DNA from: Candidatus Latescibacterota bacterium
GTDB lineage: Bacteria > Latescibacterota > UBA2968
Direction: 5' to 3'
DNA length: 64,000 bases
Assembly (NCBI GenBank): GCA_965204375.1
Contig: OZ241986.1
Location: forward strand, 2,304,001 to 2,368,000
The notes under the pieces are model-generated. The model searched no databases and was not told the DNA's origin. It saw only the letters and a list, made by a program, of their open reading frames with translations. Below, one piece after another: positions 4,947 through 64,000 of the stretch (within the stretch, counting starts at the first letter, position 1; each line of letters begins with the position of its first letter). The position numbers and the translations under genes were made by a program.

Positions 4947-4958
4947 TTGGAGAATAGC

Positions 4959-17224: not shown

Positions 17225-17768
17225 AATGTCTCTAAACTTGATGCTGGAAAAAGTTTTGAAGGAAGATGCGCTAAGAAAAAAAAGAAATAGTGATTTGAGT
17301 CTTCGAGAGCGCCAAGCGAAGATGATAGTTCAAGTCGTCGGTGCTCTCGTGCCCGTCACTGCGATACGTCTGAACAAGTTTAGCCACTTTTCCGCTTTGA
17401 AGAGCGACAATTCCCGGACCAAAAAATGCGATTATCTATTGATCGTTGAATTGGACGGTATTATTCACGCCGTTTTTATTGAACTAAAAAAGACGTTTAC
17501 TGAAGATGATGAAGCAAAAGAACAGCTACGACGATCACGGCCTTTTCTCGCTTACCTTATTTCTGTCTGCGAAATCGAAAACGAGCTTTCTCTTGAGCCG
17601 AAACCCATCGAAAAATACGTTATTATCGCAGAAAAATTTAGCGAGAGATTCGATAAACAGCGAGTGAATGTTAAGCCAAACAACATTCCTACAGAACAGT
17701 ACAAGGGAATAGAAATAAAAAACATAGTAAAGACCACAGTCTCTCTTGCCGACTTGACAAACAGCTAA
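17211..17768 (+). CDS. Hypothetical protein with PD-(D/E)xK-like motif, coupled to the ATPase
   Basis: KKCDYLLI...VFIELKK...AKEQL. The start overlaps or abuts the ATPase stop (alternative ATG 17226). Confidence 0.7.
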   Translation: MGKRKMSLNLMLEKVLKEDALRKKRNSDLSLRERQAKMIVQVVGALVPVTAIRLNKFSHFSALKSDNSRTKKCDYLLIVELDGIIHAVFIELKKTFTEDDEAKEQLRRSRPFLAYLISVCEIENELSLEPKPIEKYVIIAEKFSERFDKQRVNVKPNNIPTEQYKGIEIKNIVKTTVSLADLTNS

Positions 17769-22559: not shown

Positions 22560-23910
22560 TCAGAACTGCTGCCTGTATTGTAGCAAGATAGCGTGCGTGG
22601 CACGCCCGACAATCGACGCGCGGCGCTCGCCGCTCACCTGCACATCGAGCCGCTCGAACTTCCAATGCGGCCCCAGGCGATAGCTTCTGGTCCCTCGCGT
22701 GGTCGTCATCTCGCCAGAGAGCGTCAGCACCCCGCCAGACGCGAACAGGCCATAGCCCAGGCGGGCATTCAGACGCGCCGCACCAGACCCCGTCGCCTCC
22801 AGACCTTGCCCACGCAGGCCGCGCTCATAGAGCATCCGGATGCCGCTGGCACTATCGCCATAGCCAGGCCCCAGACTGAACGAGAGGCCGCGCCCATCTT
22901 TGCCTGGAATCAACTCGACTTCGATCTGTCCGCTCAATTCCCTGTATCCGCGCCGCACCAGCACGCGCCCGTTGCTCGCCAATGTCAGGCGCTGCACCGC
23001 ATAACTCAGTCCGCTGCCCAATTCTGCCCCACCGCCCGTCTCGCCGTCACCGCCATCGTAGCGTCCCCCCACTTCCAGGGTTGACGACAGCCGCGCCCCG
23101 TTGCCCACAGCGCGATTTTGGGTCGCCTCCAGAGCCATGCGCATGCGGCTGGCATCTACTGTTAGTCCCACGATCCCGGCCCCTTTCAGGCTGCTGTCTG
23201 CCACCTCGAGACTGGTCCACATGGTCTCGCTCTTGAGGCGCAGTCTGGTCGCCCCCAGTGCCACTGCTTGCGTGCTCAGGCCCCCGCCGGCAGTGCGGGT
23301 GTTCACGTCGCTTGATCGGGTGCCGATCTCCAAACCGCCTCTACCATAGCCCGCCGTGATCCACGCCTCCCAGTCGTTTCGCCTCCAGTTCGCGTAGGGA
23401 TGGACGCTGGCGAGGATCAGGTTGTACGCATCGCCGTTCCCTGTGCCCGATAAGTCCAGTTCGCTCAGGCTCCACGCCGCTGCTATCCCGGCGATATAGT
23501 CATTGAAAAGGCGGGCGTCCGCCCCCAGATGGATCGTGAACAGGTCGCCGTTCCAGGCCGCTGCACCGCCGCGACTGGCGAAGTTTCGGTAGTCACCGCC
23601 ACCCCAGAGGGCGAAGGAGGACGCGTACTGCTGTGGTGATGCCGAGTGAGATGCCAGCACGAAATCGCTGCTGTTCATCATGCTCTTAAAGGTGCTATTC
23701 ATCATGTCCTTGAAGATGCTACTCATCATGTGTCGGGAGGTAGATGCATCTCTGTTCAGAGCATAGAATAGGCCAGGCCAGCCGCCGGGTAGCGAGAACA
23801 GACTGGTCGGTAGCTCGGAACCGCCACCGTCTCGCGCTCGCCCGATGCGTCGTGTGATCGCGCCTACGCGCTGATCGGCCAGTGCCCGCGCCAGATCCGC
23901 CAGCAGGGCT
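22560..23910 (-). other. Linker helix and autotransporter-like beta-barrel domain of the giant protein
   Basis: LLADLARALADQRVGAITRRI helix, then ALWGGGDY, HLGAD, SVHPY, TAGYGRG, GGRYDGGDGETGGGAELG and terminal LQYRQQF. Confidence 0.8.
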
Positions 23911-26900
23911 GGATTGACCGCGATGTCGTTGTCGGTCACGGTGACTCGCACAGGAGTGGTCGTGGTCACCTCGTCGTAGCCACTGACTACATGGGTGATC
24001 GTGGTACTCTCAGAGTATGCGTCATCGTCCTCTGTGGTGGTCAGGCTCACTGTCTGTGCCCTACTCCATGTATCAGGTGTGAATGTCAGGACACCACTCA
24101 CCCGCGTCACGCCTGTCACATCGCTGGTCGCGCGCACCGTCACAGTACCAGAGGGTCGCGTATCCAGCACCACTGTGTATGTGCCAGTGCCCCCTTCCGC
24201 GATGGTCAGTGCAACTGGCTCTATCGTCACACCAGGCACCCCATCATCCATCACAGCCACCATCACAGGCTCAGCAGTGGTCACACCGTCGTAGCGACTG
24301 ACCACATGGGTGATCATAGTGCTTTCAGAGTATGCATCATCGTCCTGCATGCCAGTGACAGTGATCGTCTGCGCCTCGTTCCAGGTATCAGGTGTGAACG
24401 TCACAGACACTGGTGATATTGTCACTATATCTGTTGTACCGTTGATCGGGGTCACTGTCACAGTACCAGAGGGTCGTGCGTTCAATACCACTGTGTACGT
24501 GCTAAAGCCCCCTTCGGTGATGGTCAATGCGGTGGGAACTACTGTCACACCCCCGTCTGTATCCGTCGGTACCTTATCATTGTCCGCAATCGTCAATTCC
24601 GTATCCGTCACCGCCAGGTCGGTAGCAGAACCACTCATCGAAACCGTTTCTTCCCCCTCTGCTATCGCATCATTTACAGGCGTCAGCGTGAATGTCTCCA
24701 TCCCACTCGTCTGACCAGCCACTATCGTCACTGTGAAATCCGACACTGCACCATAGTCCGTACCTTCTGTTGCGCTGTCACTGCCATCACCCACGCTCAC
24801 TGTCACCGTCGTCGCCACCGTCCGCGCATCCGCATTCAGCGTCGCTGTCACGGTCACCGTCGTCGCGCTGTCATCCTCACCCACCGACGATGGAACCACC
24901 GTCAAAGCCACCGAACTCGAAGCCGTATCATCATCTCTGAGCGTCAACTCTGTATCCGTCGCTGTCAGACCAGACGCGCTACCATTCACCTGAACCGTCT
25001 CATCTCCTTCCGCAACCGAATCATTCACCGGCGTAATCGTAAACGTCCCTGTCCCATCCGTCTGACCCGCTGCGATCGTCACTGTGACGTTACTCACCGG
25101 CCCATAATCGTCTGGCGAAGTCGCTGTCCCATCTGCCACGCTCACCGTCACGGTCGTCGCCACAGGCAGTGCTGAACCATTCAACATCGCTGTCACAGTC
25201 ACCGTCTGAGAACCACCATCCTCCGTCACAATATTCGGACTCAAGCTCAACCCAATCCCTGTCGGTGGCGCATCATTGTCCACGATTTTCAAGGCAGCAC
25301 CCACCACTGTGAAATTCGTCGCTGTGCCCTTGATCGAAACCGTCTCATTACCCTCTGCTATCGAATCGTCCACCGGACTCAGCGTAAACGTTCCCATACC
25401 GCTCGTCTGTTCTGCTCCTATTGTCACCGTGAAATTCGACACTGTATCATAGTCCGTACCCTCGGTGGCACTGTCACTGCCATCACCCACAGAGACCGTC
25501 ACTGTCGTCGCCACCGTCCTGGCAGATTCATTCAACGTCGCTGTCACGGTCACTGTCGTCGCGCTTGCACCCTCACCAACCTCCGAGGGAGAAACTGACA
25601 ACGCCACCTCAGTCGAAGCCGTATCATCATCAGTAACAGACACCGCCACAGAGTCAGCAGTGGTCACAGAACCATACCCACTCACCGCATGACTGATCGT
25701 AGCACTCTCAGAGTATGCGTCATAGTCCTGAACCCCTGTCACCGTTACCGTCTGTGCCGTGTTCCAGCTAAATGGTGTGAACCTCATAGACACTGGTGAT
25801 ACCCTCGCCACACCCGTCGCACCACTACTCGCACGCACCGTCACAGTACCAGAGGGTCGCGTGTCCAATACCACTGTGTACGTGCCAGTGCCTCCTTCCG
25901 CGATGGTCAGTGCAGTTGGCTCTATCGTCACACCGGGAACCTCATCATCCTTCACAGACACCGCCACAGGATCAGCAGTGGTCACAGAACCATAGCCACT
26001 GACCACATGGGTGATCATGGTGCTCTCAGAGTATGCGTCATAGTCCTGAACCCCTGTCACCGTTACCGTCTGTGCCGTGTTCCAGCTAAATGGTGTGAAC
26101 CTCATAGACACTGGTGATACCCTCGCCACACCCGTCGCACTACTACTCGCACGCACCGTCACAGTACCAGAGGGTCGCGTGTCCAATACCACTGTGTACG
26201 TGCCAGTGCCTCCTTCGGCGATGGTCAATGTGGTGGGAACTACCGTCACACCCCGTTCGTCCGTACCCGTCGTCGCGTCATTGTCCGCAATCGTCAATTC
26301 CGTATTCGTCACCGTCAGATCGGTAGCAGATCCCGTCACTGAAATCTTCTCATCCTCCTCCGCTATCGAATCGTTCACCGGCCTCAGCATGAACATCCCC
26401 GTCCCACTTGTCTGACCAGCCACAATCGTCACTGTGAAGTCATTCACCTCTGTGTAGTCCGTACCCTCTATCGCACTGTCACCGACATCACCCACAGACA
26501 CCATCACCGTCGTCGCCATCGTCCGGGCATCTGCATTCAACGTCGCTGTCACAGTCACCGTCGTCTCGCTGTCACCCTCACCCACTGACGAGGGAACCAC
26601 CTTCAGAACCACCGAACTCGACTGGGTTTCTGTCGGCTCCGTGTCATCGTCTGTAATTGTCAGCGATGTCCCATTCACCGTCAGACCCGGCGTCGAACCC
26701 GTCACCGAAACCGTCTCGCTCCCTTCCACAATCGAATCATTCACTGGCGTAATCGTAAACGTCCCCATACCACTCGTCTGTCCAGCAGCAATTGTCACCC
26801 TGAAGTCAGACACGGTACCATAGTCCGTTCCCTCCGTCGCGCTACCATCTCCCACAGACACCATCACCGTCGTCACCACTGTCCGGGCATCTGCATTCAG

Positions 26901-59900: not shown

Positions 59901-62900
59901 CAGACTGGTCGGAGCAACCAACACATTAGGCGTCTCGTCATCCGTTACAGATACCGCCACCTGATCCGCTGTGGTTACAGAACCATAACCACTTACCTCA
60001 TGGCTGATCGTCGCACTGCCATTCTCTGCATCATCGTCCTGAACCCCACTCACTGTTACCGTCTGTGCCTCATGCCAGTTGTCCGCTGTAAACGTCACAG
60101 ACATTGGGGACACTGTCGCAACACTTATCGCACCACTGCTCACCGTTACCGTCACATCGCCATCAGGCTGGCTGCTCAGCTTCAGCGTGTATGTACCAGT
60201 GTTGCCCTCACTCACCGTCAGACTCGTCGGAGCAACCAACACACCCGCCATGTCGTCATCCGTAATCGTCAACTCTATACCCGTCACTGTCAGACCCGAC
60301 GTGCTACCACTCACAGAAACTGTCTCATTCCCCTCCGAAACCGAATCATCCATTGGCGTCAGCGTGAACGTTCCTGTCCCACTCGTCTGACCCGCAGGAA
60401 TCGTCACACTGAAGTCATTCACCGCTCCGTAGTCCTCCGGCGAAGTCGCTGTCCCATCACCCACGCTCACCGTCACTGTCGTGCTCCCATTCAGTGTCGT
60501 ACTTCCATCTATCGTCGCTGTCACGGAAACCGTCGTTGCGCCATCACCCTCACCAACCACCGCAGGTGACAAAGACAGACGAACACCCGTCGGTGCTGCA
60601 TCGTCATCCGTGATTGTCCCGGTCGCTTCAAGCGTCGTCGCGCCACCTGAAAGCGTCGCATTCACCGCATTGCTCAGCCTCACCTTAAATGTCTCGTTAC
60701 CCTCAGCTATATTATCATCACTGATCGTCACACTCACGGTCTTGCTCAACGCATCCCCAGCACTGAACGTCACGCGACCATCCGTCACTGCTGTATAGTC
60801 CTTGCCTGCCTCTGCTGTTCCATCCTCAGTCGCCCATGTCACTGTCACTGCCTCTCTACTCGCCACACTCAAACCCACCGTGAACGTCAGCGTACCGGCG
60901 TCCTCAACAGCACTCCCATTTTCTATATTCAGCACGGGCACGGTTGTCTCACTGATGCTCACCACCACGCTCTCAGCCATCTCACCACTATAGTCACCTG
61001 TGCTACTGACACTGTGCGTAATCGTCACCTGATCATCCACCACGGCATCATCGTCCGTAGCCGCACGCACCGTCACCGTCTGTGCCTCGTTCCAATTATC
61101 TGCTGTGAATGTCAGACTCGTCGGACTTGCCGACACATCTGTCCCTGTCGGCACTGTCACTTCAACTGTCACAGACGCTGTCGGCTCAGAGTTCAGTTTC
61201 ACAGTGTATATGCCAGTGTTCCCCTCATCCACCGTCAGGCTGGTCGGAACAACCAAAACGCCAAGCGCCTCGTCATCCGTTACAGATACCGCCACCTGAT
61301 CCGCTGTGGTTACAGAACCATAACCACTTACCTCATGGCTGATCGTCGCACTGCCATTCTCTGCATCATCGTCCTGAACCCCACTCACTGTTACCGTCTG
61401 TGCCTCATGCCAGTTGTCCGCTGTAAACGTCACAGAACCTGGGGATATTGTCGCAACATCTATCGCACCACTGCTCACCGTTACCGTCACATCGCCACCC
61501 GGCTGACTGCTCAGTTTCAAGGTGTAGGTCTGCGTTGCACCCTCATCCACCGTCAGGTTGGTCGGATTGACAACCACACCAGTCGTCTCGTCATCGGTGA
61601 CAGATACCGCCACAGGATCCGCTGTGGTCACGCTGCCATAACCACTCACCTCATGACTGATCGTAGCACTGCCATTATCCGCATCATCGTCCTGAACGCC
61701 AGCCACTGTCACCGTCTGCGCATCCTTCCAATTGTCCGGCGTGAATGTCAAAGACTCTGGGGATACTGTGGCTACACTTGCAGCACCACTACTCGCACGC
61801 ACCGTCACATCGCCACCTGGCTGACTGCTCAGTTTCAACGTGTACGTACCAGTGCTCCCCTCACCCACCGTCAAGCTGGTCGGAGCAACCAACACACCTG
61901 CCATGTCGTCATCCGTAATCATCAGCGATGTTCCATTCACCGTCAGACCTGACGTGCTACCACTCACCGAAACTGTCTCATTCTCCTCCGAAACCGAATC
62001 ATCACTCGGACTAATCGTAAACGTACCGCTACCACTTGACGAATTAGCTGCTATCGTCACCGTCACATCAGACACTGTGCCATAGTCTGTACCCTCCGTC
62101 GCACTGTCGCCCACATCACCCACAGACACCGTTACCGTCGTCGCGCCTACCAGTGTCGTACTTCCATCTATCGTCGCTGTCACGGAAACCGTCGTTGCGC
62201 CATCACCCTCACCAACCATATCAGGAGACACAGACAGACGAACACCCGTCGGTGCTGCATCGTCATCCGTGATTGTCCCGGTCGCTTCAAGCGTTGTCTC
62301 ACCACCGCTCAGCGTCGCATTCACTGCATTACTCAGCCTCACCTTAAATGTCTCGTTACCCTCAGCTATATTATCATCACTGATCGTCACACTCACGGTC
62401 TTGCTCAACGCATCCCCAGCACTAAACGTCACGCGACCATCCGTCACTGCTGTATAGTCCTTGCCTGCCTCTGCTGTTCCATCCGCTGTCACCCAACTCA
62501 CCGTCACTGCCTCTCTACTTGCCACACTCAAACCCACTGTGAAACTCAGCGTCCCTGCACCCTCAGCAGCACTCGCATTACCGATGCTCAGCACGGGCAC
62601 TATTGTCTCACTGATGCTCACCACCACACTCTCAGCCATCTCACCACTATAGTCACCTGTGCTACTGACACTGTGCGTAATCCTCACCTGATCATCCACC
62701 ACGGCATCATCGTCCGTAGCCGCGCTCACCGTCACGGTCTGTGCGGTGTTCCAGTTATCTGCTGTGAATGTCAGACTCGTCGGACTTGCCGACACATCCG
62801 TCCCTGTCGGCACGCTCACTCCAACTGTCACAGACGCTGTCGGCTCAGAGTTCAGTTTCACAGTGTATATGCCAGTGTTCCCCTCATCCACCGTCAGGCT

Positions 62901-64000
62901 GGTCGGAGCAACCAACACACCAGGCGTCTCATCGTCGGTCACAGTAATCTGAACCGGGTCCGCTGTGGTTACGCTACCATAGCCACTCACAGAATGGGTA
63001 ATCGTGGCACTGCCATTGTCTGCATCGTCATCCTCAACCCCACTCACTGTCACCGTCTGCGCTTCATGCCAATTGTCCACTGTGAACGTCACAGACATTG
63101 GGGACACCGTGACTACGGCTTCATCGCTACTACTCACGCTCACCATCACATCGCTACCAGGCTGGCTGCTCAGCTTCAGCGTGTATGTACCAGTGCTCCC
63201 CTCACCCACTGTCAGGCTGGTCGGAGCAACCAACACACCCGCCATGTCGTCATCCGTAATCATCAGCGATGTTCCATTCACCGTCAGACCTGACGTGCTA
63301 CCACTCACAGAAACCGTCTCATTCCCCTCCGAAACCGAATCATCCATTGGCGTCAGCGTGAACGTTCCTGTCCCACTCGTCTGACCCGCAGGAATCGTCA
63401 CACTGAAGTCATTCACCGCTCCGTAGTCCTCCGGCGAAGTCGCTGTCCCATCACCCACGCTCACCGTCACTGTCGTGCTCCCATTCAGTGTCGTACTTCC
63501 ATCTATCGTCGCTGTCACGGAAACCGTCGTTGCGCCATCACCCTCACCAACCACCGCAGGTGACAAAGACAGACGAACACCCGTTGGCGCTGAGTCATCA
63601 TCTGTGATTGTCCCGGTCGCTTCAAGCGTCGTCGCGCCACCTGAAAGCGTCGCATTCACCGCATCGCTCAGCTTCACCTTGAATGTCTCGTTACCCTCAG
63701 CTATGTTGTCATCACTGATCGTCACACTCACGGTCTTGCTCAACGCATCCCCAGCACTAAACGTCACACGACCATCCGTCACTGCTGTATAGTCCTTGTC
63801 CGCCTCTGCTGTCCCATCCGCTGTCACCCAACTCACCGTCACGGCCTCACTACTCGCTACACTCAAACCCACTGTGAAACTCAGCGTCCCTGCACCCTCA
63901 GAAGCACTCCCATTATCTATGCTCAGCACGGGCACTATTGTCTCACTGATGCTCACCACCACACTCTCAGCCATCTCACCACTATAGTCACCTGTGCTAC
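22560..64000 (-). CDS. Giant autotransporter-type surface protein/adhesin (>13,800 aa; Calx-beta/Ig-like repeats, LRR modules, C-terminal beta-barrel); 5' end outside the window
   Basis: Single stop-free frame. The track's Met at 63974 is an internal repeat residue (upstream reads STGDYSGE, as in other copies). Calx-beta-like motifs TADGTA..GKDY, D..AEGNETF and TITDDD recur. The C-terminus is barrel-like and ends in Phe. Confidence 0.93.
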   Translation of the reverse strand, partial: STGDYSGEMAESVVVSISETIVPVLSIDNGSASEGAGTLSFTVGLSVASSEAVTVSWVTADGTAEADKDYTAVTDGRVTFSAGDALSKTVSVTISDDNIAEGNETFKVKLSDAVNATLSGGATTLEATGTITDDDSAPTGVRLSLSPAVVGEGDGATTVSVTATIDGSTTLNGSTTVTVSVGDGTATSPEDYGAVNDFSVTIPAGQTSGTGTFTLTPMDDSVSEGNETVSVSGSTSGLTVNGTSLMITDDDMAGVLVAPTSLTVGEGSTGTYTLKLSSQPGSDVMVSVSSSDEAVVTVSPMSVTFTVDNWHEAQTVTVSGVEDDDADNGSATITHSVSGYGSVTTADPVQITVTDDETPGVLVAPTSLTVDEGNTGIYTVKLNSEPTASVTVGVSVPTGTDVSASPTSLTFTADNWNTAQTVTVSAATDDDAVVDDQVRITHSVSSTGDYSGEMAESVVVSISETIVPVLSIGNASAAEGAGTLSFTVGLSVASREAVTVSWVTADGTAEAGKDYTAVTDGRVTFSAGDALSKTVSVTISDDNIAEGNETFKVRLSNAVNATLSGGETTLEATGTITDDDAAPTGVRLSVSPDMVGEGDGATTVSVTATIDGSTTLVGATTVTVSVGDVGDSATEGTDYGTVSDVTVTIAANSSSGSGTFTISPSDDSVSEENETVSVSGSTSGLTVNGTSLMITDDDMAGVLVAPTSLTVGEGSTGTYTLKLSSQPGGDVTVRASSGAASVATVSPESLTFTPDNWKDAQTVTVAGVQDDDADNGSATISHEVSGYGSVTTADPVAVSVTDDETTGVVVNPTNLTVDEGATQTYTLKLSSQPGGDVTVTVSSGAIDVATISPGSVTFTADNWHEAQTVTVSGVQDDDAENGSATISHEVSGYGSVTTADQVAVSVTDDEALGVLVVPTSLTVDEGNTGIYTVKLNSEPTASVTVEVTVPTGTDVSASPTSLTFTADNWNEAQTVTVRAATDDDAVVDDQVTITHSVSSTGDYSGEMAESVVVSISETTVPVLNIENGSAVEDAGTLTFTVGLSVASREAVTVTWATEDGTAEAGKDYTAVTDGRVTFSAGDALSKTVSVTISDDNIAEGNETFKVRLSNAVNATLSGGATTLEATGTITDDDAAPTGVRLSLSPAVVGEGDGATTVSVTATIDGSTTLNGSTTVTVSVGDGTATSPEDYGAVNDFSVTIPAGQTSGTGTFTLTPMDDSVSEGNETVSVSGSTSGLTVTGIELTITDDDMAGVLVAPTSLTVSEGNTGTYTLKLSSQPDGDVTVTVSSGAISVATVSPMSVTFTADNWHEAQTVTVSGVQDDDAENGSATISHEVSGYGSVTTADQVAVSVTDDETPNVLVAPTSLTVDEGSTQTYTLKLTSEPTASVTVGVSVPTGTDVSASPASLTFTGDNWNTAQTVTVSAATDDDAVVDDQVTITHSVSSTGDYSGEMAESVVVSISETIVPVLSIENGSAVEDAGTLTFTVSLSVASSEAVTVSWVTADGTAEADKDYTAVTDGRVTFSAGDALSKTVSVTISDDNIAEGNETFKVKLSNAVNATLSGGATTLEATGTITDNDTAPTSVRLSLSPAIVGEGDGATTVTVTATIDGSTTLNESTAVTVSVGDGTATSPADYGAVSDVTVTIPAGQQSGTGTFTLTPVDDSFAERDETVTVTGSTPGLLVNIMSLTIKDDDTKRIEAQTASSSVSLTVSPSSVGEGDGATTVTVTTTMNADARTVATTVIVSIGATGDSATEGTDYGAVSDVTVTIAAGQTSGTGTFTITPTNDSSFERNETVSVSGSASGLSVVSSTLTIVDDDASPDRAALIALYDATGGANWSNNTNWKDDSKPINDWYGVTVSQNRVTNLFLSSNNLRGTIPSELGSLSELTYLELNKNNLSGSIPSELGNLSKLTYLNLSNNALSGSIPSELGNLSELRHLGLSNNALSGSIPSELGNLSKLRSLFLSNNELTDPLPRAFTKLDLIINLDINSNAGLCVPTDMEFRDWVGEILTYSGQTCRDVSWDETTYSHTETDNDATLSLTVNIRPALTEASTVNVSAGQSTQTGVNHAISTSDYTVSSTSLVLPANTESTTFDVTIKGDNIYELEEVFILALSAIADAPYTVGSASVTVTIEDDDASPDRAALIALYDATGGANWHRNTNWKDEGKPISDWEGVQVSRDNRVTTIRLSNNNLMGTIPTELGSLSNLTSLDLSNNALSGTIPSELGDLSNLTSLSLHGNALSGSIPSELGSLSKLTSLNLARNALSGTIPTELSDLSNLLSLDLSANELTGPLPRAFTALSLNILRIRGNAGLCVPADTEFRNWVGEIGTYRGQTCRDVSVSWDETTYSHTETDSDATLSLTVNISPALTEASTVNVSAGQSTQTGVNHASSTSDYTVSSTSLMLSANTESTTFDVTIKGDDIYELEEVFILTLSAIADAPYTVGSASVTVTIEDDDASPDRAALIALYDATDGANWHRNTNWKDDSKPISDWEGVKVSQNRVTQLEFFSDNNLMGTIPTELGSLSNLTSLDLARNALSGSIPTELGNLSNLTSLDLSNNALSGSIPTELGNLSNLTSLNLSANTLSGSIPSELGGLSNLTSLHLGTNTLSGSIPSELGNLSKLRRLNLPNNKLSGPLPRTFTALKQLFQMSIWNSGLCVPADMEFQTWAGKIHRFSGTTCSYDVSWDETTYRHTETDSDATLSLTVNINPAQTEASTVTINIGSESTATLDTDYTLPSRSLELSAQQTSVSFDITIKGDDEKEDTETIYLKLSEIPYAPYTVSADSIAVISIIDDDERGLALSPQSVTVTEASGAMHTATYTVALTSQPTAEVTVSVSSEDDAVARVTPTSLTFATDGYNTAQTVTVMGTDDNVDNTSDRTANIVHVASGGDYAMVSGAVTVTVIDEDISAFSVANAEVMEGDAGETELVFTVTLSPPADRETRVDWATSDGTAKARLDYIARISSKNFAAGETEKAVTVSVYGDEIDEDNEAVTVTLSNPTGGATLGTASATGTIIDDDERGLALSPQSVTVTEASGAMNTATYAVALTSKPTAEVTVSVSSEDNAVARVTPTSLTFATDAWNTAQTVTVMGTDDNVDNASDRTANIVHGASGGDYAMVSGAVTVTVIDDEGISAFSVADAEVTEGDAGETELVFTVTLSPPADRETMVEWATSDGTAKAGVDYTAGRGTLTFNPGVSAMDVVVMVTGDTFNEGASETLRLTLSNITGNTNYKRQLATGTINDDDEGPPTVSFTDTSLEVIEGVTERDQSFTIALDFSTGIQLSSAIVKLKAVPSPGKRLATAVTTGSCSDGGVDIVMVEGASVGMGVTSIQFQIVVCDDEVIEPPEYILITIEPGDGYTPHPQDARFMVKITDRSEVVTLSRGTKVTLNETDTDQLRRFPVNADKAWEGDIELSFTRNNTSTATEDDFTLGNCILTDSADSCEITIIGDNLYEETETLHLQMALVNSEVSASISDRNQIEIDIRDDDTASTEVALSVSPSSVGEGDGATTVSVTATLNADARTVATTVTVSVGSGSDSATEGTDYSAVSDVTVTIASGLTSSTGTFTIKPNDDSIAEGDETVSVTGSSSLTVNGTELTITDNDTAPTGVRLSVSPDMVGEGDGATTVTVTATLSGSILPDATTVTVSVGATGDSAVEGTDYGTVSDVTVTITAGQTSGKVTFTISPVNDSVAEGNETVSVGGSATDLTVNGTSLTITDDDMAGVVVDPKTLTVDEGSTNTYTLKLNSQPGGNVTVTVTSGAVSVATVSPATVTFTSSNWSDAQTVTVSGVADDDANNDSATISHQSSSSDSKYSSSLMVASVAVSVTDDETAGVTVDPTSLTINEGASKTYTVKLTSEPTASVTVGVSVPTGTDVSASPTSLTFTADNWSTAQTVTVSVAADADAVADAQVTITHSVSSTGDYNGKTASSVVVSITETTVPVLGIGNASAAEGAGTLTFTVSLSVASSDAVTVSWVTADGTAEAGKDYTAVTDGRVTFSSGDGLSQAISVTISDDTIAEGNETFKVKLSNAVNATLSGGGATLEATGTITDNDTAPMSVRLSLSPAMVGEGDGATTVTVTATIDGSVTLPGATTVTVSVGNVGDSAVEGTDYGAVSDVTVTIAANSSSGSGTFTITPSDDGIAEGEEKVSVNGTASGFTVTGADLKIMDNDAAPTGIGLSLSPSHVTEDGGAQTVSVKAMLNGSALPNATTVTVSIGATNDSAVEGTDYGAVSDVTVTIAAGQTSGEGTFSISPVNDSVAEGDETVSVTGSTEGLTGGTASLTLRDDDTASSSVALSVSPSSVGEDDSATTVTVTASLNADARTVATMVTVSIGATNDSATEGTDYASVNDVTVTISSGKTSGEETFTITPNDDSVAEGNETVSVTGSTEGLTVNGTSLTITDDDMAGVVVDPASLTVNEGSTNTYTLKLSSQPSGNVTVSASSNATDVARVSPATVTFSTTNWRTAQTVTVRGVADDDANNGSATISHSSSSSDSKYSSSLTVDSVTITVNDDETASVVVSPKTLTVDEGSTNTYTLKLSSQPGGNVTVTATSSALAVATVSPGSVTFTSSNWSTAQTVTVSGVSDDDANNESATISHQSTSSDSKYSSSLTVASVAVSVTDDETTGVTVDPTSLTVNEGASKIYTMKLTSKPTASVTVGVSVPTGTDVSASPTSLTFTADNWSTAQTVTVSVAADADAVADAQVTITHSVSSTGDYNGKTASSVVVSITETTVPVLGIGNASAAEGAGTLTFTVSLSVASSDAVTVSWATTDGTAEAGKDYTAVTDGRVTFSSGDALSKTVSVTISDDNIAEGNETFKVTLSNAVNATLSGGGSTLEATGTITDNDTAPMSVRLSLSPAMVSEGDGATTVTVTATISGSVTLPDATTVTVSVGDGSDSATEGTDYGAVSDVAVTIAANSSSGSGTFTITPSDDGIAEGEEKVSVNGSATGLDVTGADLKIMDNDTAPTGIVLSLNPSAVTEDGGAQTVTVKAMLNGSALPGATAVTVSVSDGTATSPADYGAVAAITVTISSGKTSGEGTFSISPVNDSVAEGDETVSVRGSTSGLTVNGTSLTITDDDMAGVEVDPKTLTVDEGSTNTYTLKLSSKPSTNVTVSASSSAISVATVSPATVTFTSSNWSDAQTVTVSGVADDDANNDSATISHQSSSSDSKYSSSLTVASVAVSVTDDETAGVTVDPTSLTINEGSSKTYTVVLDSEPTASVTVGVSVPTGTDVSASPTTVTFTTTNWSTAQTVTVSVATDNDAVVDDKVTIRHSVSSTGDYSGKTASSVVVNITETTVPVLSIGNASAAENAGTMTFTVGLSVSSSKAVTVSWVTVDGTAEAGKDYTAVTDGRVTFSSGDGLSQAISVTISDDTIYEGNETFKVTLSNAVNATLSGGGNTLEATGTITDNDTAPTGIRLSLSPAMVGEGAGATTVTVTATISGSVTLPAATTVTVSIGTTSDSATEGTDYASVNDVTVTIAANSSSSTGTFTITPSDDGIAEGEEKVSVNGTASGFTVTSADLKIMDNDAAPTGIGLSLNPSAVTEDGGAQTVSVKAMLNGSALPGATAVTVSIGATNDSATEGTDYGTVADVTVTIAAGSSSGSGTFTITPSDDSVAEGNETVSVGGSTSGLTVNGTSLTITDDDMAGVVVDPKTLTVGEGNTNTYTLKLSSKPGGNVTVSARSSAISVATVSPATVTFTSSNWSDAQTVTVSGVSDDDANNGSATISHTVSGYGSVTTADQVAVSVTDDETAGVVVNPTSLTVGEGSTKTYTLKLSSKPGGNVTVSARSSATSVATVSPATVTFTSSNWSTAQTVTVSGVADDDADNGSATISHSVSGYGSVTTADEVAVSVTDDDTASTEVALSVSPSSVGEDDSATTVSVTATLNESARTVATTVIVSIGDGSDSATEGTDYGTVSDVTVTISSGQTSGSGTFTISPTDDSVAEGNETVSVGGSATGLTVNGTSLTITDDDMAGVVVDPKTLTVGEGSTNTYTLKLSSQPGGNVTVSARSSAVSVATVSPVTVTFTSSNWSDAQTVTVSGVADDDADNDNTTITHTVSGYGSVTTADQVAVSVTDDDEAGVVVDPTSLTVGEGSSKTYTLKLSSQPGGNVTVSARSGAVSVATVSPTTVTFTSSNWSDAQTVTVSGVQDNDAEDGSTTISHQSTSSDSKYSSSLTVASVAVSVTDDETAGVVVDPTSLTVGEGGTNTYTLKLNSEPGGNVTVSARSSAISVATVSPVTVTFTSSNWSTAQTVTVSGVADDDADNGSATISHTVSGYGSVTTADQVAVSVTDDDMAGVVVDPKTLTVDEGSTNTYTLKLSSKPGGNVTVSARSSAISVATVSPATVTFTSSNWSTAQTVTVSGVADDDADNDSATISHQSTSSDSKYSSSLTVDSVDITVTDDETAGVVVDPKTLTVDEGSTNTYTLKLSSKPGGNVTVSARSSAISVATVSPATVTFTSSNWSDAQTVTVSGVSDDDANNGSATISHSVSGYGSVTTADQVAVSVTDDETAGVVVNPTSLTVGEGSTKTYTLKLSSKPGGNVTVSARSSAISVATVSPATVTFTSSNWSDAQTVTVSGVSDDDANNGSATISHSVSGYGSVTTADQVAVSVTDDETAGVVVNPTSLTVGEGSTKTYTLKLSSKPGGNVTVSARSGAISVATVSPATVTFTSSNWSDAQTVTVSGVQDGDAENGSATISHTVSGYGSVTTADQVAVSVTDDDTASTEVTLSVSPSSVGEDDSATTVSVTATLNESVRTVATTVTVSVGSGSDSATEGTDYGTVSDVTVTISSGQTSGSETFTITPTDDSVAEGNETVSVDGSTSGLTVNGTSLTITDDDMAGVVVDPKTLTVDEGSTNTYTLKLSSKPGGNVTVSARSSAVSVATVSPATVTFTSSNWSTAQTVTVSGVADDDADNGSATISHSVSGYGSVTTADQVAVSVTDDETAGVVVDPKTLTVGEGNTNTYTLKLSSKPGGNVTVSARSSAVSVATVSPATVTFTSSNWSTAQTVTVSGVADDDAENGSATISHTVSGYGSVTTADQVAVSVTDDDTASTEVSLSVSPSSVGEDDSATTVSVTATLNESARTVATTVIVSIGDGSDSATEGTDYGTVSDVTVTIASGNTSGSGTFTISPTDDSVAEGNETVSVGGSATGLTVNGTSLTITDDDMAGVVVDPKTLTVGEGSSKTYTLKLSSQPGGTVTVSARSSAVSVATVSPATVTFTSSNWSTAQTVTVSGVSDDDADNGSATISHTVSGYGSVTTADQVAVSVTDDETAGVVVNPTSLTINEGSSKTYTLKLSSKPGGNVTVSARSSAVSVATVSPATVTFTSSNWSTAQTVTVSGVADDDAENGSATISHTVSGYGSVTTADQVAVSVTDDDTASTEVTLSVSPSSVGEDDSATTVSVTATLNESARTVATTVTVSIGDGSDSATEGTDYGTVSDVTVTIASGQTSGSETFTITPSDDSVAEGNETVSVDGSTSGLTVNGTSLTITDDDMAGVVVDPTSLTVGEGNTKTYTLKLSSKPGGNVTVRARSSAISVATVSPVTVTFTSSNWSTAQTVTVSGIADDDADNGSATISHTVSGYGSVTTADQVAVSVTDDETAGVVVDPKTLTVGEGSTNTYTLKLSSKPGGNVTVSARSSAISVATVSPVTVTFTSSNWSTAQTVTVSGVSDDDAENGSATISHTVSGYGSVTTADEVAVSVTDDDTASTEVALSVSPSSVGEDDSATTVTVTATLNESARTVATTVIVSIGTTSDSAVEGTDYGTVSDVTVTIASGQTSGSGTFTITPTDDSVAEGNETVSVSGSATGLTVNGTELTITDDDMAGVVVAPKTLTVDEGSTNTYTLKLSSKPGGNVTVSARSSATSVATVSPVTVTFTSDNWSTAQTVTVSGVQDDDANNDSATISHQSTSSDSKYSSSLTVDSVDITITDDETAGVVVDPKTLTVDEGSTNTYTLKLSSQPGGNVTVSARSSAVSVATVSPATVTFTSSNWSTAQTVTVSGVSDDDADNGSATISHTVSGYGSVTTADEVAVSVTDDETAGVVVNPTSLTVGEGSSKTYTLKLSSKPGGNVTVSARSSAVSVATVSPVTVTFTSSNWSTAQTVTVSGVADDDAENGSATISHTVSGYGSVTTADQVAVSVTDDDTASTEVTLSVSPSSVGEDDSATMVSVTATLDESARTVTTTVTISIGATNDSATEGTDYGTVSDVTVTIASGNTSGSGTFTITPTDDSFAEGNETVSVGGSTSGLTVNGTSLTITDDDMAGVVVDPKTLTVGEGSTNTYTLKLSSQPGGNVTVSARSSAIGVATVSPATVTFTSSNWSDAQTVTVSGVSDDDANNGSATISHTVSGYGSVTTADQVAVSVTDDETAGVVVDPKTLTVDEGSTNTYTLKLSSQPGGNVTVSARSSAISVATVSPATVTFTSSNWSTAQTVTVSGVADDDADNGSATISHTVSGYGSVTTADQVAVSVTDDDTASTEVTLSVSPSSVGEDDSATTVSVTATLNESVRTVATTVTVSIGDGSDSATEGTDYGTVADVTVTIAAGSSSGSGTFTITPSDDSVAEGNETVSVDGSTSGLTVNGTSLTITDDDMAGVVVDPKTLTVGEGNTNTYTLKLSSKPGGNVTVSARSSAISVATVSPATVTFTSSNWSDAQTVTVSGVSDDDANNGSATISHTVSGYGSVTTADQVAVSVTDDETAGVVVNPTSLTVGEGSTKTYTLKLSSKPGGNVTVSASSGAISVATVSPATVTFTSSNWSDAQTVTVSGVQDDDAENGSATISHTVSGYGSVTTADKVAVSVTDDDTASSSVALSVSPSSVGEGASATTVSVTATLNESVRTVATTVTVSIGDGSDSATEGTDYGTVSDVTVTISSGQTSGSETFTITPSDDSVAEGNETVSVSGSTSGLTVNGTSLTITDDDVAGVVVDPTSLTINEGSTNTYTLKLSSKPGGNVTVSARSSAVSVATVSPATVTFTSSNWSDAQTVTVSGVSDDDANNGSATISHTVSGYGSVTTADQVAVSVTDDETAGVVVDPKTLTVGEGSTNTYTLKLSSKPGGNVTVSARSSAISVATVSPATVTFTSSNWSDAQTVTVSGVSDDDANNGSATISHTVSGYGSVTTADEVAVSVTDDDTASTEVALSVSPSSVGEDDSATTVSVTATLNESARTVATTVMVSVGSGSDSATEGTDYGTVSDVTVTIASGKTSGSGTFTITPTDDSVAEGNETVSVSGSTSGLTVNGTSLTITDDDMAGVVVNPTSLTINEGSSKIYTVKLTSKPTASVTVGVSVPTGTDVSASPTSLTFTADTWNTAQTVTVRAAADADAVVDAQVTVTHSVSSTGDYSGKTASSVMVSITETTVPVLSIGSASAAEGAGTLTFTVSLSVASSEAVTVSWVTADGTAEAGKDYTAVTDGRVTFSSGGGLSQAISVTISDDTIYEGNETFKVTLSNAVNATLSGGGSTLEATGTITDNDTAPTIVLSVDPAMVGEGDSATTVSVTATLSGSILPDATTVTVSVGASGDSATEGTDYGTVSDVTVTIAAGKTSGKGTFTITPTDDSISEGEEQVSVNGSAGTLSVTGASLKIMDNDAAPTGIGLSLNPNSVTENGGSVTVSVTVMLNGSALPGATMVTVSVGSGSDSATEGTDYGTVSDVTVTIASEKTSGSGTFTITPTDDSVAEGNETVSVRGSVSGLTGATSSLTIRDDDTASTEVALSVSPSSVGEDDSATTVTVTATLNADARTVATTVTVSIGDGSDSAVEGTDYGTVSDVTVTIAAGKTSGTGTFTITPTDDSVAEGNETVSVDGSTSGLTVNGTSLTITDDDMAGVVVNPTSLTVGEGNTNTYTLKLSSKPGGNVTVSARSSAVSVATVSPATVTFTSSNWSTAQTVTVSGVADDDAENGSATISHQSASSDSKYSSSLTVDSVDITVTDDDMAGVVVDPKTLTVGEGSTNTYTLKLSSKPGGNVTVRARSSATSVATVSPVTVTFTSSNWSTAQTVTVSGVADDDAENGSATISHTVSGYGSVTTADQVAVSVTDDDTASTEVTLSVSPSSVGEDDSATMVTVTATLNESARTVATTVTVSIGDGSDSATEGTDYGTVSDVTVTIAAGKTSGTGTFTITPSDDSVAEGNETVSVDGSTSGLTVNGTSLTITDDDMAGVVVDPTSLTVGEGNTKTYTLKLSSKPGGNVTVSARSSAISVATVSPVTVTFTSSNWSTAQTVTVSGVSDDDADNGSATISHQSASSDSKYSSSLTVDSVDITVTDDDMAGVVVDPKTLTVGEGSTNTYTLKLSSKPGGNVTVSARSSAVSVATVSPVTVTFTSSNWSTAQTVTVSGVQDGDAENGSATISHTVSGYGSVTTADEVAVSVTDDDTASTEVALSVSPSSVGEDDSATTVTVTATLNESARTVATTVTVSVGSGSDSATEGTDYGTVADVTVTIAAGSSSGSGTFTITPSDDSVAEGNETVSVGGSTSGLTVNGTSLTITDDDVAGVVVDPTSLTINEGSTNTYTLKLSSKPGGNVTVSARSSAVSVATVSPATVTFTSSNWSTAQTVTVSGVADDDAENGSATISHTVSGYGSVTTADQVAVSVTDDDTASTEVTLSVSPSSVGEDDSATTVSVTATLNESVRTVATTVTVSVGSGSDSATEGTDYGTVSDVTVTIAAGSSSGSGTFTITPTDDSVAEGNETVSVDGSTSGLTVNGTLLTITDDDVAGVVVNPTSLTINEGSSKTYTLKLSSKPGGNVTVSARSSATSVATVSPVTVTFTSSNWSDAQTVTVSGVSDDDADNDSATISHTVSGYGSVTTADQVAVSVTDDETAGVVVNPTSLTVGEGSTNTYTLKLSSQPGGNVTVSARSSATSVATVSPVTVTFTSSNWSTAQTVTVSGVADDDAENDSATISHTVSGYGSVTTADQVAVSVTDDDTASSSVALSVSPSSVGEGASATTVSVTATLNESARTVATTVTISIGATNDSATEGTDYGTVSDVTVTIASGNTSGSGTFTITPSDDSILEGNETVSVSGSATGLTVNGTSLTITDNDTAPTVDLSVDPAMVSEGDSATTVSVTATLSGSVLPGATTVTVSVGASGDSAVEGTDYGTVSDVTVTIAANSSSGSGTFTITPSDDSISEGEEQVSVNGSAGTLSVTGASLKIMDNDTSPTGIGLSLNPNSVTENGGSVTVSVTVMLNGSALPGATTVTVSVGASGDSAVEGTDYGAVSDVTVTIAAEKTSGSGTFTISPVNDSVAEGNETVSVRGSVSGLTGDTASLTIRDDETASSSVALSVSPSSVGEDDSATTVSVTATLNADARTVATTVTVSIGTTSDSATEGTDYASVNDVTVTISSGQTSGSGTFTISPSDDSVAEGNETVSVSGSTSGLTVNGTSLTITDDDMAGVVVSPKTLTVGEGSTNTYTLKLSSQPGGNVTVSARSSATSVATVSPVTVTFTTTNWSTAQTVTVSGVSDDDADNGSATISHTVSGYGSVTTADEVAVSVTDDDTASTEVALSVSPSSVGEGASATTVSVTATLNESARTVATTVTVSIGATNDSATEGTDYSTVSDVTVTIAAGSSSGSGTFTISPSDDSVAEGNETVSVGGSTSGLTVNGTSLTITDNDTAPTVDLSVDPAMVGEGDSATTVSVTATLSGSVLPDATTVTVSVGSGSDSATEGTDYGTVADFTVMIGGEETSGSGTFTITPSDDSISEGEEQVSVNGSAGALSVTGASLKIMDNDAASTGIALSLSPESVTEEGGSQTVSVTAMLNGAVLVGATTVTVSVADGTATSPDDYGSVSNFTVTIASGQTSGMGTFTITPVNDSVAEGDETVSVRGSASGLTGDTASLTIRDDDTASSSVALAVVPSSVGESDSATTVTVTATLNADARTVATTVTVSVGAGSDSATEGTDYASVNDVTVTIAAGQTNGTGTFTITPNDDSFAEGNETVTVTGSTSDLTVTDTELTITDNDMASTGIDLSLNPNAVTEDGGSQTVTVTAMLNGSARTVATTVTVSVADGTATSPDDYGAVSNFTVTIATGQTSGTGMFAITPVNDSVAEGNETVSVRGSASGLTVNGTSLTIRDDDTEPTETPTVSSSVSLTVVPSSVGEGDGATTVTVTARLNADARTVETLVTVSVGDAGDSATEGTDYGTVSDFRVTIAAGQTSGTETFTITPVNDSIVEGSETVSVTGSTPGLTVNGTSLTITDNDTAPTGIQLSLNPGSVTEEGGAQTVTVTAMLNGSALPDVTTVTVSVSDGTATSPDDYGAVGAITVTIATGQTNGTGTFSITPVNDSIVEGDETVTVQGTAPGLTVNGTSLTIRDNDTEPDETGTQTASSSVVLKVVPSSVGEGDGATIVSVTATLNADARTVVTTVMVSVGDGSATEGTDYGTVSDFRVTIAAGQTSGMGTFTITPVNDSIVEGSETVSVTGSTPGLTVNGTSLTITDDDTEPTETQSSSVVLKVVPSSVGEGDSETTVTVTATLNADARTMATTVMVSVGDVGDSAIEGTDYTEVNDFTVTIVAGQTSGTGMFMLRPVNDSIAEEDEKISVTGSATDLTVTNTELTIADNDATTGTDERGVTVVPTTLTIAEGGTGTYTVVLDTRPSGTVTVRASSSATGVARVSPVSMRFTPFSWNTAQTVTVTGVQDYDAYSESTMITHVVSGYGSVTTADPVAVSVKDDEVPGVTIEPTALTIAEGGTGTYTVVLDTRPSGTVTVRASSGATGVARVSPVSMRFTPFSWNTAQTVTVTGVQDYDAYSESATISHAVSGYGSVTTADSVAVSVTDDDTASTEVALSVSPSEVGEGASATTVTVTATLNESARTVATTVTVSVGDGSDSATEGTDYDTVSNFTVTIGAEQTSGMGTFTLSPVDDSIAEGNETVSIKGTATNFTVVGAALKIVDNDAPPTGIGLSLSPNIVTEDGGSQTVTVTAMLNGSALPVATTVTVSVADGTATSPDDYGPVSNVTVTIAAGQTDGTGTFTITPVNDSVAEGDETVQVNGSASGLTATDTELTLRDDDTASSSVALTVVPSSVGEDDSATTVTVTATLNADARTVATTVTVSVGDGSDSATEGTDYGAVSDFTVTIVAGQTSGMETFTLTPVNDAIAEGEETVSMSGSATDLAVTDTELTIADNDKVPTDTDGGVTVVPTALTITEGGFSTYTVVLNARPSGTVTVTPINGTTDIVTISPVSVTFTPDTWNEAQTITVTGMQDDDAYSESTMITHVVSRYDGVTTAEPVMVAVMDDGVPGVTIEPVALTIAEGGTGTYTVVLDTRPSGTVTVRATSDVTGVTRVSGVLTFTPDTWSRAQTVSLTTTEDDDAYSESTTITHVVSGYDEVTTTTPVRVTVTDNDIAVNPALLADLARALADQRVGAITRRIGRARDGGGSELPTSLFSLPGGWPGLFYALNRDASTSRHMMSSIFKDMMNSTFKSMMNSSDFVLASHSASPQQYASSFALWGGGDYRNFASRGGAAAWNGDLFTIHLGADARLFNDYIAGIAAAWSLSELDLSGTGNGDAYNLILASVHPYANWRRNDWEAWITAGYGRGGLEIGTRSSDVNTRTAGGGLSTQAVALGATRLRLKSETMWTSLEVADSSLKGAGIVGLTVDASRMRMALEATQNRAVGNGARLSSTLEVGGRYDGGDGETGGGAELGSGLSYAVQRLTLASNGRVLVRRGYRELSGQIEVELIPGKDGRGLSFSLGPGYGDSASGIRMLYERGLRGQGLEATGSGAARLNARLGYGLFASGGVLTLSGEMTTTRGTRSYRLGPHWKFERLDVQVSGERRASIVGRATHAILLQYRQQF
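23920..53535 (-). repeat. Array of ~105-120-aa Calx-beta/Ig-like domains, with a recurrent 987-bp higher-order unit between about 31 and 47 kb
   Basis: Homologous shadow ORFs recur at 987-bp spacing (40675/41662/42649/43636; 38134/39121; 46000/46987). The basic GVVV.P..LTV.EG unit is 318 bp. Confidence 0.9.
44004..44669. repeat. Perfect 318-bp-period tandem duplication
   Basis: Manual comparison shows position n equals n+318 from 44004 to 44351, with mismatches at 44003 and 44352. Confidence 0.85.
55950..58545 (-). repeat. Three capped LRR modules (24-aa/72-bp plant receptor-kinase-like repeats) separated by Calx-beta-like spacers
   Basis: Each module has N-cap DRAALIALYDAT.GANW..TNW, repeats LxxLxLxxNxLSGxIPxELGxL, and C-cap GLCVP...TC. 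Approximate spans are 57945-58540, 56985-57585 and 55950-56620. Confidence 0.93.
58560..64000 (-). repeat. N-proximal higher-order Calx-beta repeat array
   Basis: Homologous positions at 59467/60802/62461/63796 (spacings 1335, 1659, 1335 bp); long near-identical blocks lie 2994 bp apart. Confidence 0.85.

Follow-up and report, generated by a model that had tools for sequence, protein, structure and literature searches.

A single uninterrupted gene of 42 kb

The question raised by this locus is whether a coding stretch of more than 41 kb without a stop codon, running off the edge of the sequence analyzed, is one real gene and what kind of protein such a gene might encode. The stretch, referred to here as the window, is a 64,000-nucleotide segment (G000:C1:2304001-2368000) of a Candidatus Latescibacterota genome that is assembled as a single contig of 6,340,849 bp, and positions beyond its edge are given in window-equivalent coordinates, i.e., as the genome position minus 2,304,000. 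The window holds most of one real, uninterrupted gene with a product of about 14,000 residues, and we consider it likely that this product is a Ca2+-binding adhesion fiber anchored in the outer membrane and built on the autotransporter (type V) plan. The gene is delimited by the following features:

22560..64000, minus strand: in-window part of the giant open reading frame (ORF), 13,812 stop-free codons (frame 22560..63998), open at the window edge
22560..22562, minus strand: stop codon after the terminal Phe (...LLQYRQQF)
Window-equivalent 64611-64736, minus strand, outside the window: Sec-type signal peptide and start region, assigned by inspection

The original prediction, made from the window alone, had described a Phe-terminated coding sequence of more than 41 kb that was still open at the edge, and the frame bears this out over its full in-window length. 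An alternative frame of the same strand contains 1,042 stops in 13,813 codons, whereas the gene's own frame contains the terminal stop only, and a chance origin of the 42-kb open frame is thereby excluded. It had also been proposed to seek the start and a signal peptide beyond the edge, and both could be located when the frame was followed into the genome. An upstream in-frame stop lies at window-equivalent 64836 and the first ATG at 64736 (G000:C1:2368736), 736 nt past the window edge, which gives a protein of 14,058 residues. A second ATG, 19 codons after the first (window-equivalent 64679), starts the segment MSLRWALVALALLLDANPAAA followed by QTTP, in which a charged n-region leads into a hydrophobic core and an AxA-like site and which, by inspection, reads as a Sec signal peptide ending before the Gln. 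The product has a mass of 1.405 MDa and is strongly acidic (pI 4.05), with 1,706 Asp and Glu residues against 445 Lys and Arg.

The C-terminal module is related to autotransporter translocators

The last 454 residues form a module that carries most of the evidence for the autotransporter plan. Its parts are as follows:

23832..23924, minus strand: start of the module with a conserved α-helix (module residues 5-31, predicted local distance difference test (pLDDT) score 91-94), from AlphaFold
23616..23831, minus strand: segment of about 72 residues from the helix to strand 1 (residues 13636-13707) with the motif ...GSxFVLPLNA, from the alignment and AlphaFold
22563..23615, minus strand: β-strand region (residues 13708-14058, 351 residues), from DSSP on the AlphaFold model and from PF03797

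A family scan of the module over 1.84 billion representative proteins found relatives in 4,866 clusters at E ≤ 1e-3 and in 517 at E ≤ 1e-30. In all 150 relatives listed, the best of the 4,866, the match is C-terminal, in proteins ranging from 310 to 7,796 residues, and the last residue in these 150 is Phe (124), Trp (11), Leu (10), Tyr (4) or Gln (1). F454 is invariant in the module alignment, and the conserved aromatic terminus would place the last strand in a barrel assembled by the β-barrel assembly machinery (BAM). Ten of 14 short relatives match the Pfam family PF03797 at E ≤ 0.01, eight of them over the cut-off (30.6-54.6 bits), and four are without a match; among the 30 nearest ESM-Atlas clusters, 28 belong to PF03797, and one homologous protein bears the source annotation 'autotransporter domain-containing protein'. 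On the module, the match spans profile positions 1 to about 212 of 255, corresponding to approximately the first 190 residues, or ten strands, of the strand region. In the source genome, PF03797-like matches are confined to the giant gene. A sequence search of the Protein Data Bank (PDB) with the single module gave no relevant match, and a search with the module profile gave passenger-type Ig domains only, with no barrels.

AlphaFold2 was run twice, with 15 aligned sequences (pLDDT 72) and with 60 (pLDDT 82, predicted template modeling score 0.78), and both models consist of a helix, a partly disordered stretch of about 70 residues and then 18 strands as assigned by DSSP (module residues 104-453). 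Structure comparison by VIA-align against 48,161 chains places type Va translocators in all of the top six positions, viz., NalP (Z 17.9), Hbp (17.3), EstA (17.1), AaaA (17.1), AIDA-I (16.8) and EspP (16.0), with 232-263 residues aligned at a root mean square deviation (RMSD) of 3.7-4.9 Å and with alignments that begin at the N-terminal helix. The first (15-sequence) model gives the same ranking order, and Foldseek places EstA first. When the model is aligned with solved type Va structures, the module helix would correspond to the linker helix that spans their pore.

From these results, we conclude that the module is a divergent relative of autotransporter translocators with about 110 extra membrane-like residues. 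The C-terminus can thus be modeled as an outer-membrane barrel and as a relative of autotransporters, so that the outcome named originally as refuting the proposal, a C-terminal part that would not model in this way, did not occur. As for the suggestion of a type Va-like export barrel, the kinship with translocators stands, but the models do not show the canonical 12-strand barrel of type Va, with 18 predicted strands and a Pfam match over about the first ten. Other type V layouts fit less well. Trimeric autotransporter adhesins (type Vc) have a short YadA-like anchor at the C-terminus, to which each chain contributes four strands; Pfam found no YadA_anchor in the module, and the 351-residue strand region has its 18 predicted strands in one chain. 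The layout is also not that of an inverse autotransporter (type Ve), as the barrel is C-terminal and the N-terminal 246 residues comprise, in the Pfam scan, the signal peptide with Calx-β and Ig-like domains.

The genome also encodes a single, weaker paralogue of the module (27% identity), which ends a 2,245-aa ORF (G000:C1:5181862-5188597, plus strand). This ORF has a signal-like N-terminus, a long Pro-Gln-rich (PPPQ) spacer and a non-aromatic last residue.

The passenger is a chain of β-sandwich domains with distal leucine-rich repeats

The domain map was derived using two hidden Markov models (HMMs) built from the giant protein itself and Pfam scans in four protein segments, and is given below from the N-terminus to the C-terminal module:

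58542..64000 and on to window-equivalent 64604, minus strand: distal (N-terminal) repeat array of 18 Calx-β and B domains (residues 45-2065), HMM map
57933..58541, minus strand: leucine-rich repeat (LRR) module 1 (residues 2066-2268) with C-terminal cap Cys2242/Cys2264, Pfam and inspection
57585..57932, minus strand: Calx-β domain separating LRR module 1 from LRR module 2 (residues 2269-2384), HMM map
56982..57584, minus strand: LRR module 2 (residues 2385-2585) with C-terminal cap Cys2561/Cys2583, Pfam and inspection
56622..56981, minus strand: Calx-β domain separating LRR module 2 from LRR module 3 (residues 2586-2705), HMM map
55932..56621, minus strand: LRR module 3 (residues 2706-2935) with N-terminal cap, about seven repeats and C-terminal cap Cys2906/Cys2928
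54252..55931, minus strand: five alternating Calx-β and B domains (residues 2936-3495), HMM map
53520..54251, minus strand: two degenerate Calx-β-like domains with four of the ten Cys (residues 3496-3739), inspection
23925..53519, minus strand: proximal repeat array of 89 tandem Calx-β (about 116 residues) and B (about 104 residues) domains (residues 3740-13604), HMM map

The two HMMs place 114 non-overlapping tandem domains over 12,599 of the 14,058 residues. Sixty of these, of about 116 residues, are Calx-β domains by Pfam (E 1e-109 to 1e-154 per segment), and the other 54, of about 104 residues and denoted B, are Ig-like and have no Pfam match over threshold. The B domain has sub-threshold matches only, to Big_2 (E 0.004), to LapA (E 0.12) and, in the long scans, to fn3_6, and we treat the B domains as unassigned Ig-like sandwiches. 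Together with the two degenerate domains, the 114 compare with the roughly 120 β-sandwich domains estimated at the outset. Asp-rich junctions between the domains are reflected in 127 D[ND]D motifs in the giant protein.

The LRR modules match the Pfam families LRR_8, LRR_1, LRR_4 and LRR_14 and are made of 24-residue repeats with the consensus LxxLxLxxNxLSGxIPxELGxLsx, a type that we take to be typical of plant receptors, with caps at both ends and one Cys pair in each C-terminal cap. They lie in the distal sixth of the chain, about 10,700 residues away from the C-terminal anchor, so that the earlier idea of LRR modules held far from the cell accords with their position (residues 2066-2935) at the far end of the presumed fiber. 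The composition likewise shows the anticipated dominance of Thr (17.3%), Ser (14.6%), Val (13.1%), Gly (9.1%) and Asp (8.1%), with Ala at 9.3%. Cys occurs only ten times in the protein and, as had been noted, is restricted to the LRR caps and one further segment: six lie in pairs, one pair toward the C-terminal end of each LRR module (2242/2264, 2561/2583 and 2906/2928), and the other four (3558, 3587, 3683 and 3692) are all found in segment 3496-3739. That segment had been regarded as a unique domain, a view that we do not retain, as it reads as two degenerate Calx-like domains and no new fold.

A proposed route of export and display, and what speaks against it

In the model that we favor, a Sec-type signal peptide would bring the chain into the periplasm, and the 454-residue module, consisting of the helix, a linker of about 70 residues and a barrel homologous to that of type Va, would be put into the outer membrane by BAM and the translocation and assembly module (TAM). 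The genome has seven Omp85 matches over cut-off, the best of which (157.5 bits) is in an 815-aa ORF, and TamB (166.9 bits) is encoded about 3 kb from a 603-aa Omp85 ORF; the presence of Omp85 and TamB makes the bacterium a diderm with BAM and TAM. The barrel would then act as the anchor, and the passenger would be threaded outward from its C-terminal end. Outside, the 116 Calx-β/Ig-like domains would fold, probably with Ca2+ at the Asp-rich junctions, into a rod of perhaps 0.4-0.5 µm, and the three LRR modules near its tip would presumably be shown to a ligand on a host or partner cell in a habitat provided by a marine invertebrate (a sponge or a coral). Transcription would most likely start from a sigma-54 promoter and be controlled by the sensor kinase and the NtrC-type activator that are encoded divergently next to the gene. 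The data themselves establish the ORF and its domain map, the homology and predicted fold of the barrel module, the genes for BAM, TamAB and RpoN, the promoter motif and how the family is distributed, and from these we infer surface exposure, C-to-N threading, Ca2+ stiffening, fiber length, ligand binding and regulation.

Several observations weigh against this model of an autotransporter-type fiber. The giant protein's own module scores 23.7-24.5 bits with PF03797 (E 4-6e-5), under the cut-off of 26, and no autotransporter model matched it in an NCBIfam scan. The type Va barrel has 12 strands and both models have 18; about 155 residues remain past the end of the PF03797 match (profile position ~212 of 255); and the confidently predicted helix (module residues 5-31) lies about 70 residues from strand 1, unlike in the solved translocators. 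The usual type Va passenger is a β-helix, and the passenger here is a chain of β-sandwiches. Because the barrel is made last, about 13,600 residues would have to wait export-competent in the periplasm, and we know of no autotransporter shown to hold a passenger of that size in such a state. Also, no record among the contigs of public sequencing runs spans the repeat stretch, and hence the length of the gene is supported by the one-contig assembly and by frames of comparable size in other genomes. In one run from an RNA library, a relative with 96-97% identity is represented by contigs that cover the barrel region, though these may stem from DNA carry-over.

Does the module form an enlarged barrel?

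A rival reading is a new subclass of type V in which a barrel of about 18 strands with a helical plug has a wider pore, either alone or as a hybrid with BamA/TamA, and lets β-sandwich domains of about 2.5 nm pass singly, one after another, in a folded or partly folded state. Such a subclass would explain how chains of Ig-like domains as long as 14,000 residues are exported despite the Ca2+ expected in a marine periplasm. We regard it as less likely than not, and the predicted structure and the covariation data point in both directions.

On the one hand, the 18 strands assigned by DSSP recur in the two independent AlphaFold runs, the strand region has 351 residues against the 255 positions of PF03797, and the seven longest of the ten PF03797 matches in relatives all stop at profile positions 206-219, with about 155 residues following. 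Strands 9-18 show hydrophobic and polar faces alternating as in membrane strands (205 homologues), a helix plus linker of about 100 residues is conserved ahead of the barrel, and the conserved terminal aromatic residue would include the last strand in the BAM-assembled barrel. Covariation, computed by mean-field direct coupling analysis of 205 and then 286 sequences (effective number about 200), backs the predicted hairpins, and those of the extra strands are among its strongest signals: with 286 sequences, adjacent strand pairs have a mean of 0.80 compared with 0.38 (standard deviation 0.14) for non-adjacent pairs, with S13-S14 at 1.12 and S17-S18 at 1.31.

On the other hand, the pair that would close an 18-strand barrel does not covary (S1-S18, z -0.5), and neither of the alternative closures is decisive (S1-S12, z +0.7; S1-S13, z +1.9), with only 60 of the top 200 pairs being local. 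The model is fitted better by 12-stranded translocators (RMSD 3.7-4.9 Å) than by 18- or 19-stranded barrels (4.5-6.0 Å), the opposite of what the ideal geometry of a round 18-strand barrel would give (about 8 Å and 1.6 Å, respectively), which argues that the AlphaFold model is not a round 18-strand barrel. A comparison of the tail with the head by hhalign detects no internal hairpin duplication (probability 2%), and the passage of folded domains is pure conjecture. 'Long-type' barrels (AIDA-I/Ag43) were once suspected of having extra strands, and a 12-strand barrel is part of the published definition of the autotransporter family (PMC3419190). The solved transport unit of AIDA-I (PDB identifier 4mee) nevertheless matches the module model in the same way as the other translocators do. 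The barrel of AIDA-I has 12 strands.

In our estimate, a single barrel enlarged to 18 strands from the canonical 12 is possible, with a chance that falls somewhat short of even. The segment between the helix and strand 1 (residues 13636-13707), which is modeled in part with low confidence as short helices and one short strand, is a possible plug of the pore. A search of full-text literature, with subscription journals and supplements set aside, found no description of the module family, no 18-stranded autotransporter barrel, no account of a link between the module and β-sandwich passengers, and no giant autotransporters or abundance of the module in sponge-type symbionts. The autotransporter-type fiber, with a divergent translocator relative as its anchor, remains our preferred reading, and the non-canonical barrel module is the most interesting open point of this locus.

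Is the assembled length real?

A different explanation holds that the gene is real but that its length is an artefact of assembly, with repeats expanded, collapsed or mis-joined, and that the protein is much shorter or split. The passenger DNA is indeed highly repetitive, with 49 self-matches at ≥ 90% identity, the longest of 2,070 bp at 90.9%, and one exact repeat (340-349 nt). Public reads were checked through Logan contigs, which are short, from four runs compared over 20 kb, and in the repeat region the contigs of three runs are 194-523 nt long with a few alternative joints, leaving the stretch unspanned. However, the genome is one contig of 6.34 Mb, and the repeat copies have diverged to the point that only one self-match, of 63 bp, reaches ≥ 95% identity, so that accurate long reads could place them. 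Moreover, the frame is intact across 42 kb, and in four other one-contig genomes, frames of 10,886-13,331 aa also end in this module, with a passenger of the same design in the three that were checked. At the 3' end of the gene, the last 2.8 kb are identical in contigs from two samples, and three public runs hold 69-85% of the words sampled from the last 10 kb. In light of these data, we judge an artefact of length to be improbable.

Comparison with known secretion systems

Type I secretion, by which the protein would be exported in one step as a giant repeats-in-toxin (RTX)-type adhesin like LapA, SiiE or MpIBP with a C-terminal domain that is no translocator, can be set aside with near certainty, for although the passenger is similar (tandem Ca2+-binding Calx-β/cadherin-like/Ig-like arrays, a pI of 4.05, very few Cys, and Calx-β-like domains reported for LapA in PMC12153261), Pfam scans of all four protein segments gave no HemolysinCabind/RTX (PF00353) match, the N-terminus has a Sec-type signal peptide, the C-terminus is predicted to fold as a Phe-ended membrane barrel, and no ABC transporter, membrane-fusion, TolC-like or other secretion gene is found among the 16 ORFs scanned downstream (about 22 kb) and the ten upstream (about 17 kb), the search for type I secretion genes having been confined to these 26 ORFs. 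The contrast that had been drawn with LapA and SiiE is therefore well founded. LapA, SiiE and MpIBP have no Sec signal and have C-terminal RTX repeats and adjacent type I secretion genes, none of which was found for the giant protein (for the secretion genes, among the 26 flanking ORFs). By analogy, the giant protein may nonetheless resemble them as a long, acidic, Ca2+-dependent rod of tandem domains that keeps ligand-binding modules off the cell.

With the type Va autotransporters (NalP, EspP, Hbp, AIDA-I, EstA and BrkA), the giant protein shares the order of signal peptide, passenger, putative helical linker, C-terminal barrel and terminal aromatic residue, the homology to PF03797 over about the first ten strands, and, with the solved translocators as top matches, the predicted structure. 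It differs from them in its predicted strands, which number 18 and not 12, in a stretch of about 70 additional residues that separates the helix from the barrel, in a last portion of about 155 residues outside the Pfam model, in its 116 β-sandwich domains and LRR modules in place of a β-helix, and in being 4-10 times longer than characterized members. Inverse autotransporters (type Ve), such as intimin and invasin, export tandem Ig-like domains through a type V barrel, and hence chains of β-sandwiches can use the pathway; their 12-stranded barrel is N-terminal and their domains amount to a handful, whereas the barrel of the giant protein is C-terminal.

Two other proteins provide partial precedents. 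BapP from Pseudoalteromonas tunicata also comes from a marine host-surface bacterium, has a Sec signal and mixes Calx-β with Ig-like repeats of 90-94 aa, and it is a proposed Ca2+-dependent adhesin with an unsettled export route (PMC12153261). In the accessible text of that report, BapP has 12 repeats and an N-terminal β-propeller and no C-terminal barrel is described, as opposed to the 116 domains and translocator-like barrel of the giant protein. BigE from a β-proteobacterium, a predicted autotransporter of 10,429 aa that was 'the largest known autotransporter' in 2012, similarly exceeds 10,000 residues through internal repetition of its passenger (Celik et al. 2012, PMC3419190). According to the same paper, BigE has an EstA-type barrel and a BrkA-like passenger of predicted β-strand repeats; the giant protein is about 35% longer, its passenger consists of Calx-β, Ig-like and LRR domains, and its barrel module is divergent and longer.

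The size of the protein is accordingly less unprecedented than it had appeared, given BigE in print and the four other genomes of the class with frames of 10,886-13,331 aa. It is a record among the proteins examined, but one of no new order of magnitude and of a kind already known; giant bacterial genes in general are described in a preprint as encoding up to 85,804 aa (bioRxiv 10.1101/2023.11.21.568195). If the gene is as assembled, its product is the longest autotransporter-type protein found, the next being the 13,331-aa frame among 132 related genomes and the published prediction of 10,429 aa. It sharpens an open problem of type V secretion, as a passenger of 13,600 residues, once through the inner membrane, would have to stay in the periplasm until the barrel, made last, exports it, and Ca2+ in a marine periplasm should already favor its folding there. 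The thousands of modules with an apparently enlarged barrel offer a system for asking whether barrel size limits the cargo of type V secretion.

Relatives, hosts and recurrence of giant size

A pattern scan of named genomes confirmed 224 module loci, and the best 76 of these, for which titles were compiled, are all in metagenome-assembled genomes. Titles among these 76 include Poriferihabitaceae, Spongiihabitans, Porisulfidus, Nitrospirales, Nitrospinales, Thermohalobaculum, Azotimanducaceae, Binatia, Vicinamibacterales and Marinacidobacterales, and several of the names point to sponge symbionts. Public runs labeled sponge metagenome and coral metagenome contain contigs 95-99% identical to the barrel region, and the RNA library mentioned above is one of these runs. 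Often, 5-10 copies of the module occur in one genome. A FastTree phylogeny of 74 barrel sequences (Pseudomonadota 41, Nitrospirota 18, Acidobacteriota 5, Nitrospinota 3, Binatota 1) attributes most of the diversity to expansion within genomes; it requires eight changes of phylum label compared with a minimum of four and has a few well-supported pairs across phyla, which hints at some transfer of the module between phyla. The barrel of the giant protein is on a long branch of this tree, with a best identity of 46%.

The module is present in 31 of the 41 nearest genomes and in 68 of 132 genomes of the same class. The best match within the genus is only 36-37% identical and one metagenome protein is 58% identical, and the giant gene is thus not conserved as an orthologue. 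Module-ended open frames of at least 10,000 aa occur in five of the 132 genomes, with lengths of 14,091 (the present one), 13,331, 11,240, 11,178 and 10,886 aa. In the last three, which are from three other species, there are 33-51 matches each to the Calx and B models, counted with overlaps between the two models left in, and one module. Shorter module-ended frames of 9,381, 9,039 and 8,822 aa are found in the related genomes G107, G066 and G010, and the module of the 13,331-aa frame is at G097:C1:5010875-5012326 on the minus strand. Three relative copies of the module have one in-frame TAG each (G021:C1:7225501-7226652, G021:C1:7461173-7462324 and G110:C1:1442894-1444060) and may be decaying members of the family.

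A broader proposal can be made only tentatively, and we would not bet on it: that the module defines an undescribed branch of type V, in which a plugged barrel of about 18 strands would serve very long Ca2+-binding β-sandwich chains (to 14,000 residues), possibly moved as folded beads, and that this branch is shared, partly by gene transfer, among sponge and coral bacteria of at least five phylum-level lineages as the main display route for eukaryote-like binding modules. 

Sponge microbiomes are rich in surface proteins with adhesion domains of the cadherin, Calx, Ig and LRR kinds (PMC10947273). For symbiosis research, the module family itself points to a common device for anchoring and export that many of these proteins may share.

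Genomic context and regulation

Upstream of the giant gene, a spacer of 940 nt separates it from a divergent pair of regulatory genes:

Window-equivalent 65001-65016, minus strand: exact match to the sigma-54 promoter consensus (TGGCACACTTTTTGCT), 265 nt ahead of the first ATG
G000:C1:2369679-2373675, plus strand: divergent hybrid sensor kinase (Response_reg, PAS, HATPase_c) and activator (Response_reg, Sigma54_activat, HTH_8)

The sigma-54 site is the only exact one in the spacer and is in the orientation of the giant gene. Genome-wide, the exact pattern occurs 39 times compared with 3 for the reversed control, and RpoN is encoded in the genome. From the gene arrangement, the giant gene is plausibly regulated by the neighboring two-component pair. 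A run of 13 G (window-equivalent 65397-65409, minus strand) also lies in this AT-rich spacer, some 380 nt farther upstream than the sigma-54 motif; in the vicinity of adhesin promoters, such homopolymer tracts can cause phase variation by slippage.

Downstream of the giant gene are pyruvate-dehydrogenase-type genes, sulfatases and defense-like genes. The two sulfatase genes (Sulfatase and SGSH_C; window positions 4947-6383 and 17994-19436, plus strand) are near a gene for a xylose-isomerase-like TIM-barrel protein and one for an FGGY sugar kinase, which suggests use of sulfated glycans, a trait often reported for sponge-associated bacteria. A tetratricopeptide repeat ORF of at least 841 aa is open at the window start (positions 2-2524, minus strand). 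The defense-like genes are a GmrSD-type restriction endonuclease (window positions 7655-9895, plus strand) and an ATPase of the AAA_15/AAA_21 (AbiEii-like) type, after which comes a 185-aa ORF with no Pfam match (window positions 15806-17768, plus strand), and both lie in patches of low GC content (0.42-0.47, compared with 0.52-0.59 around them).

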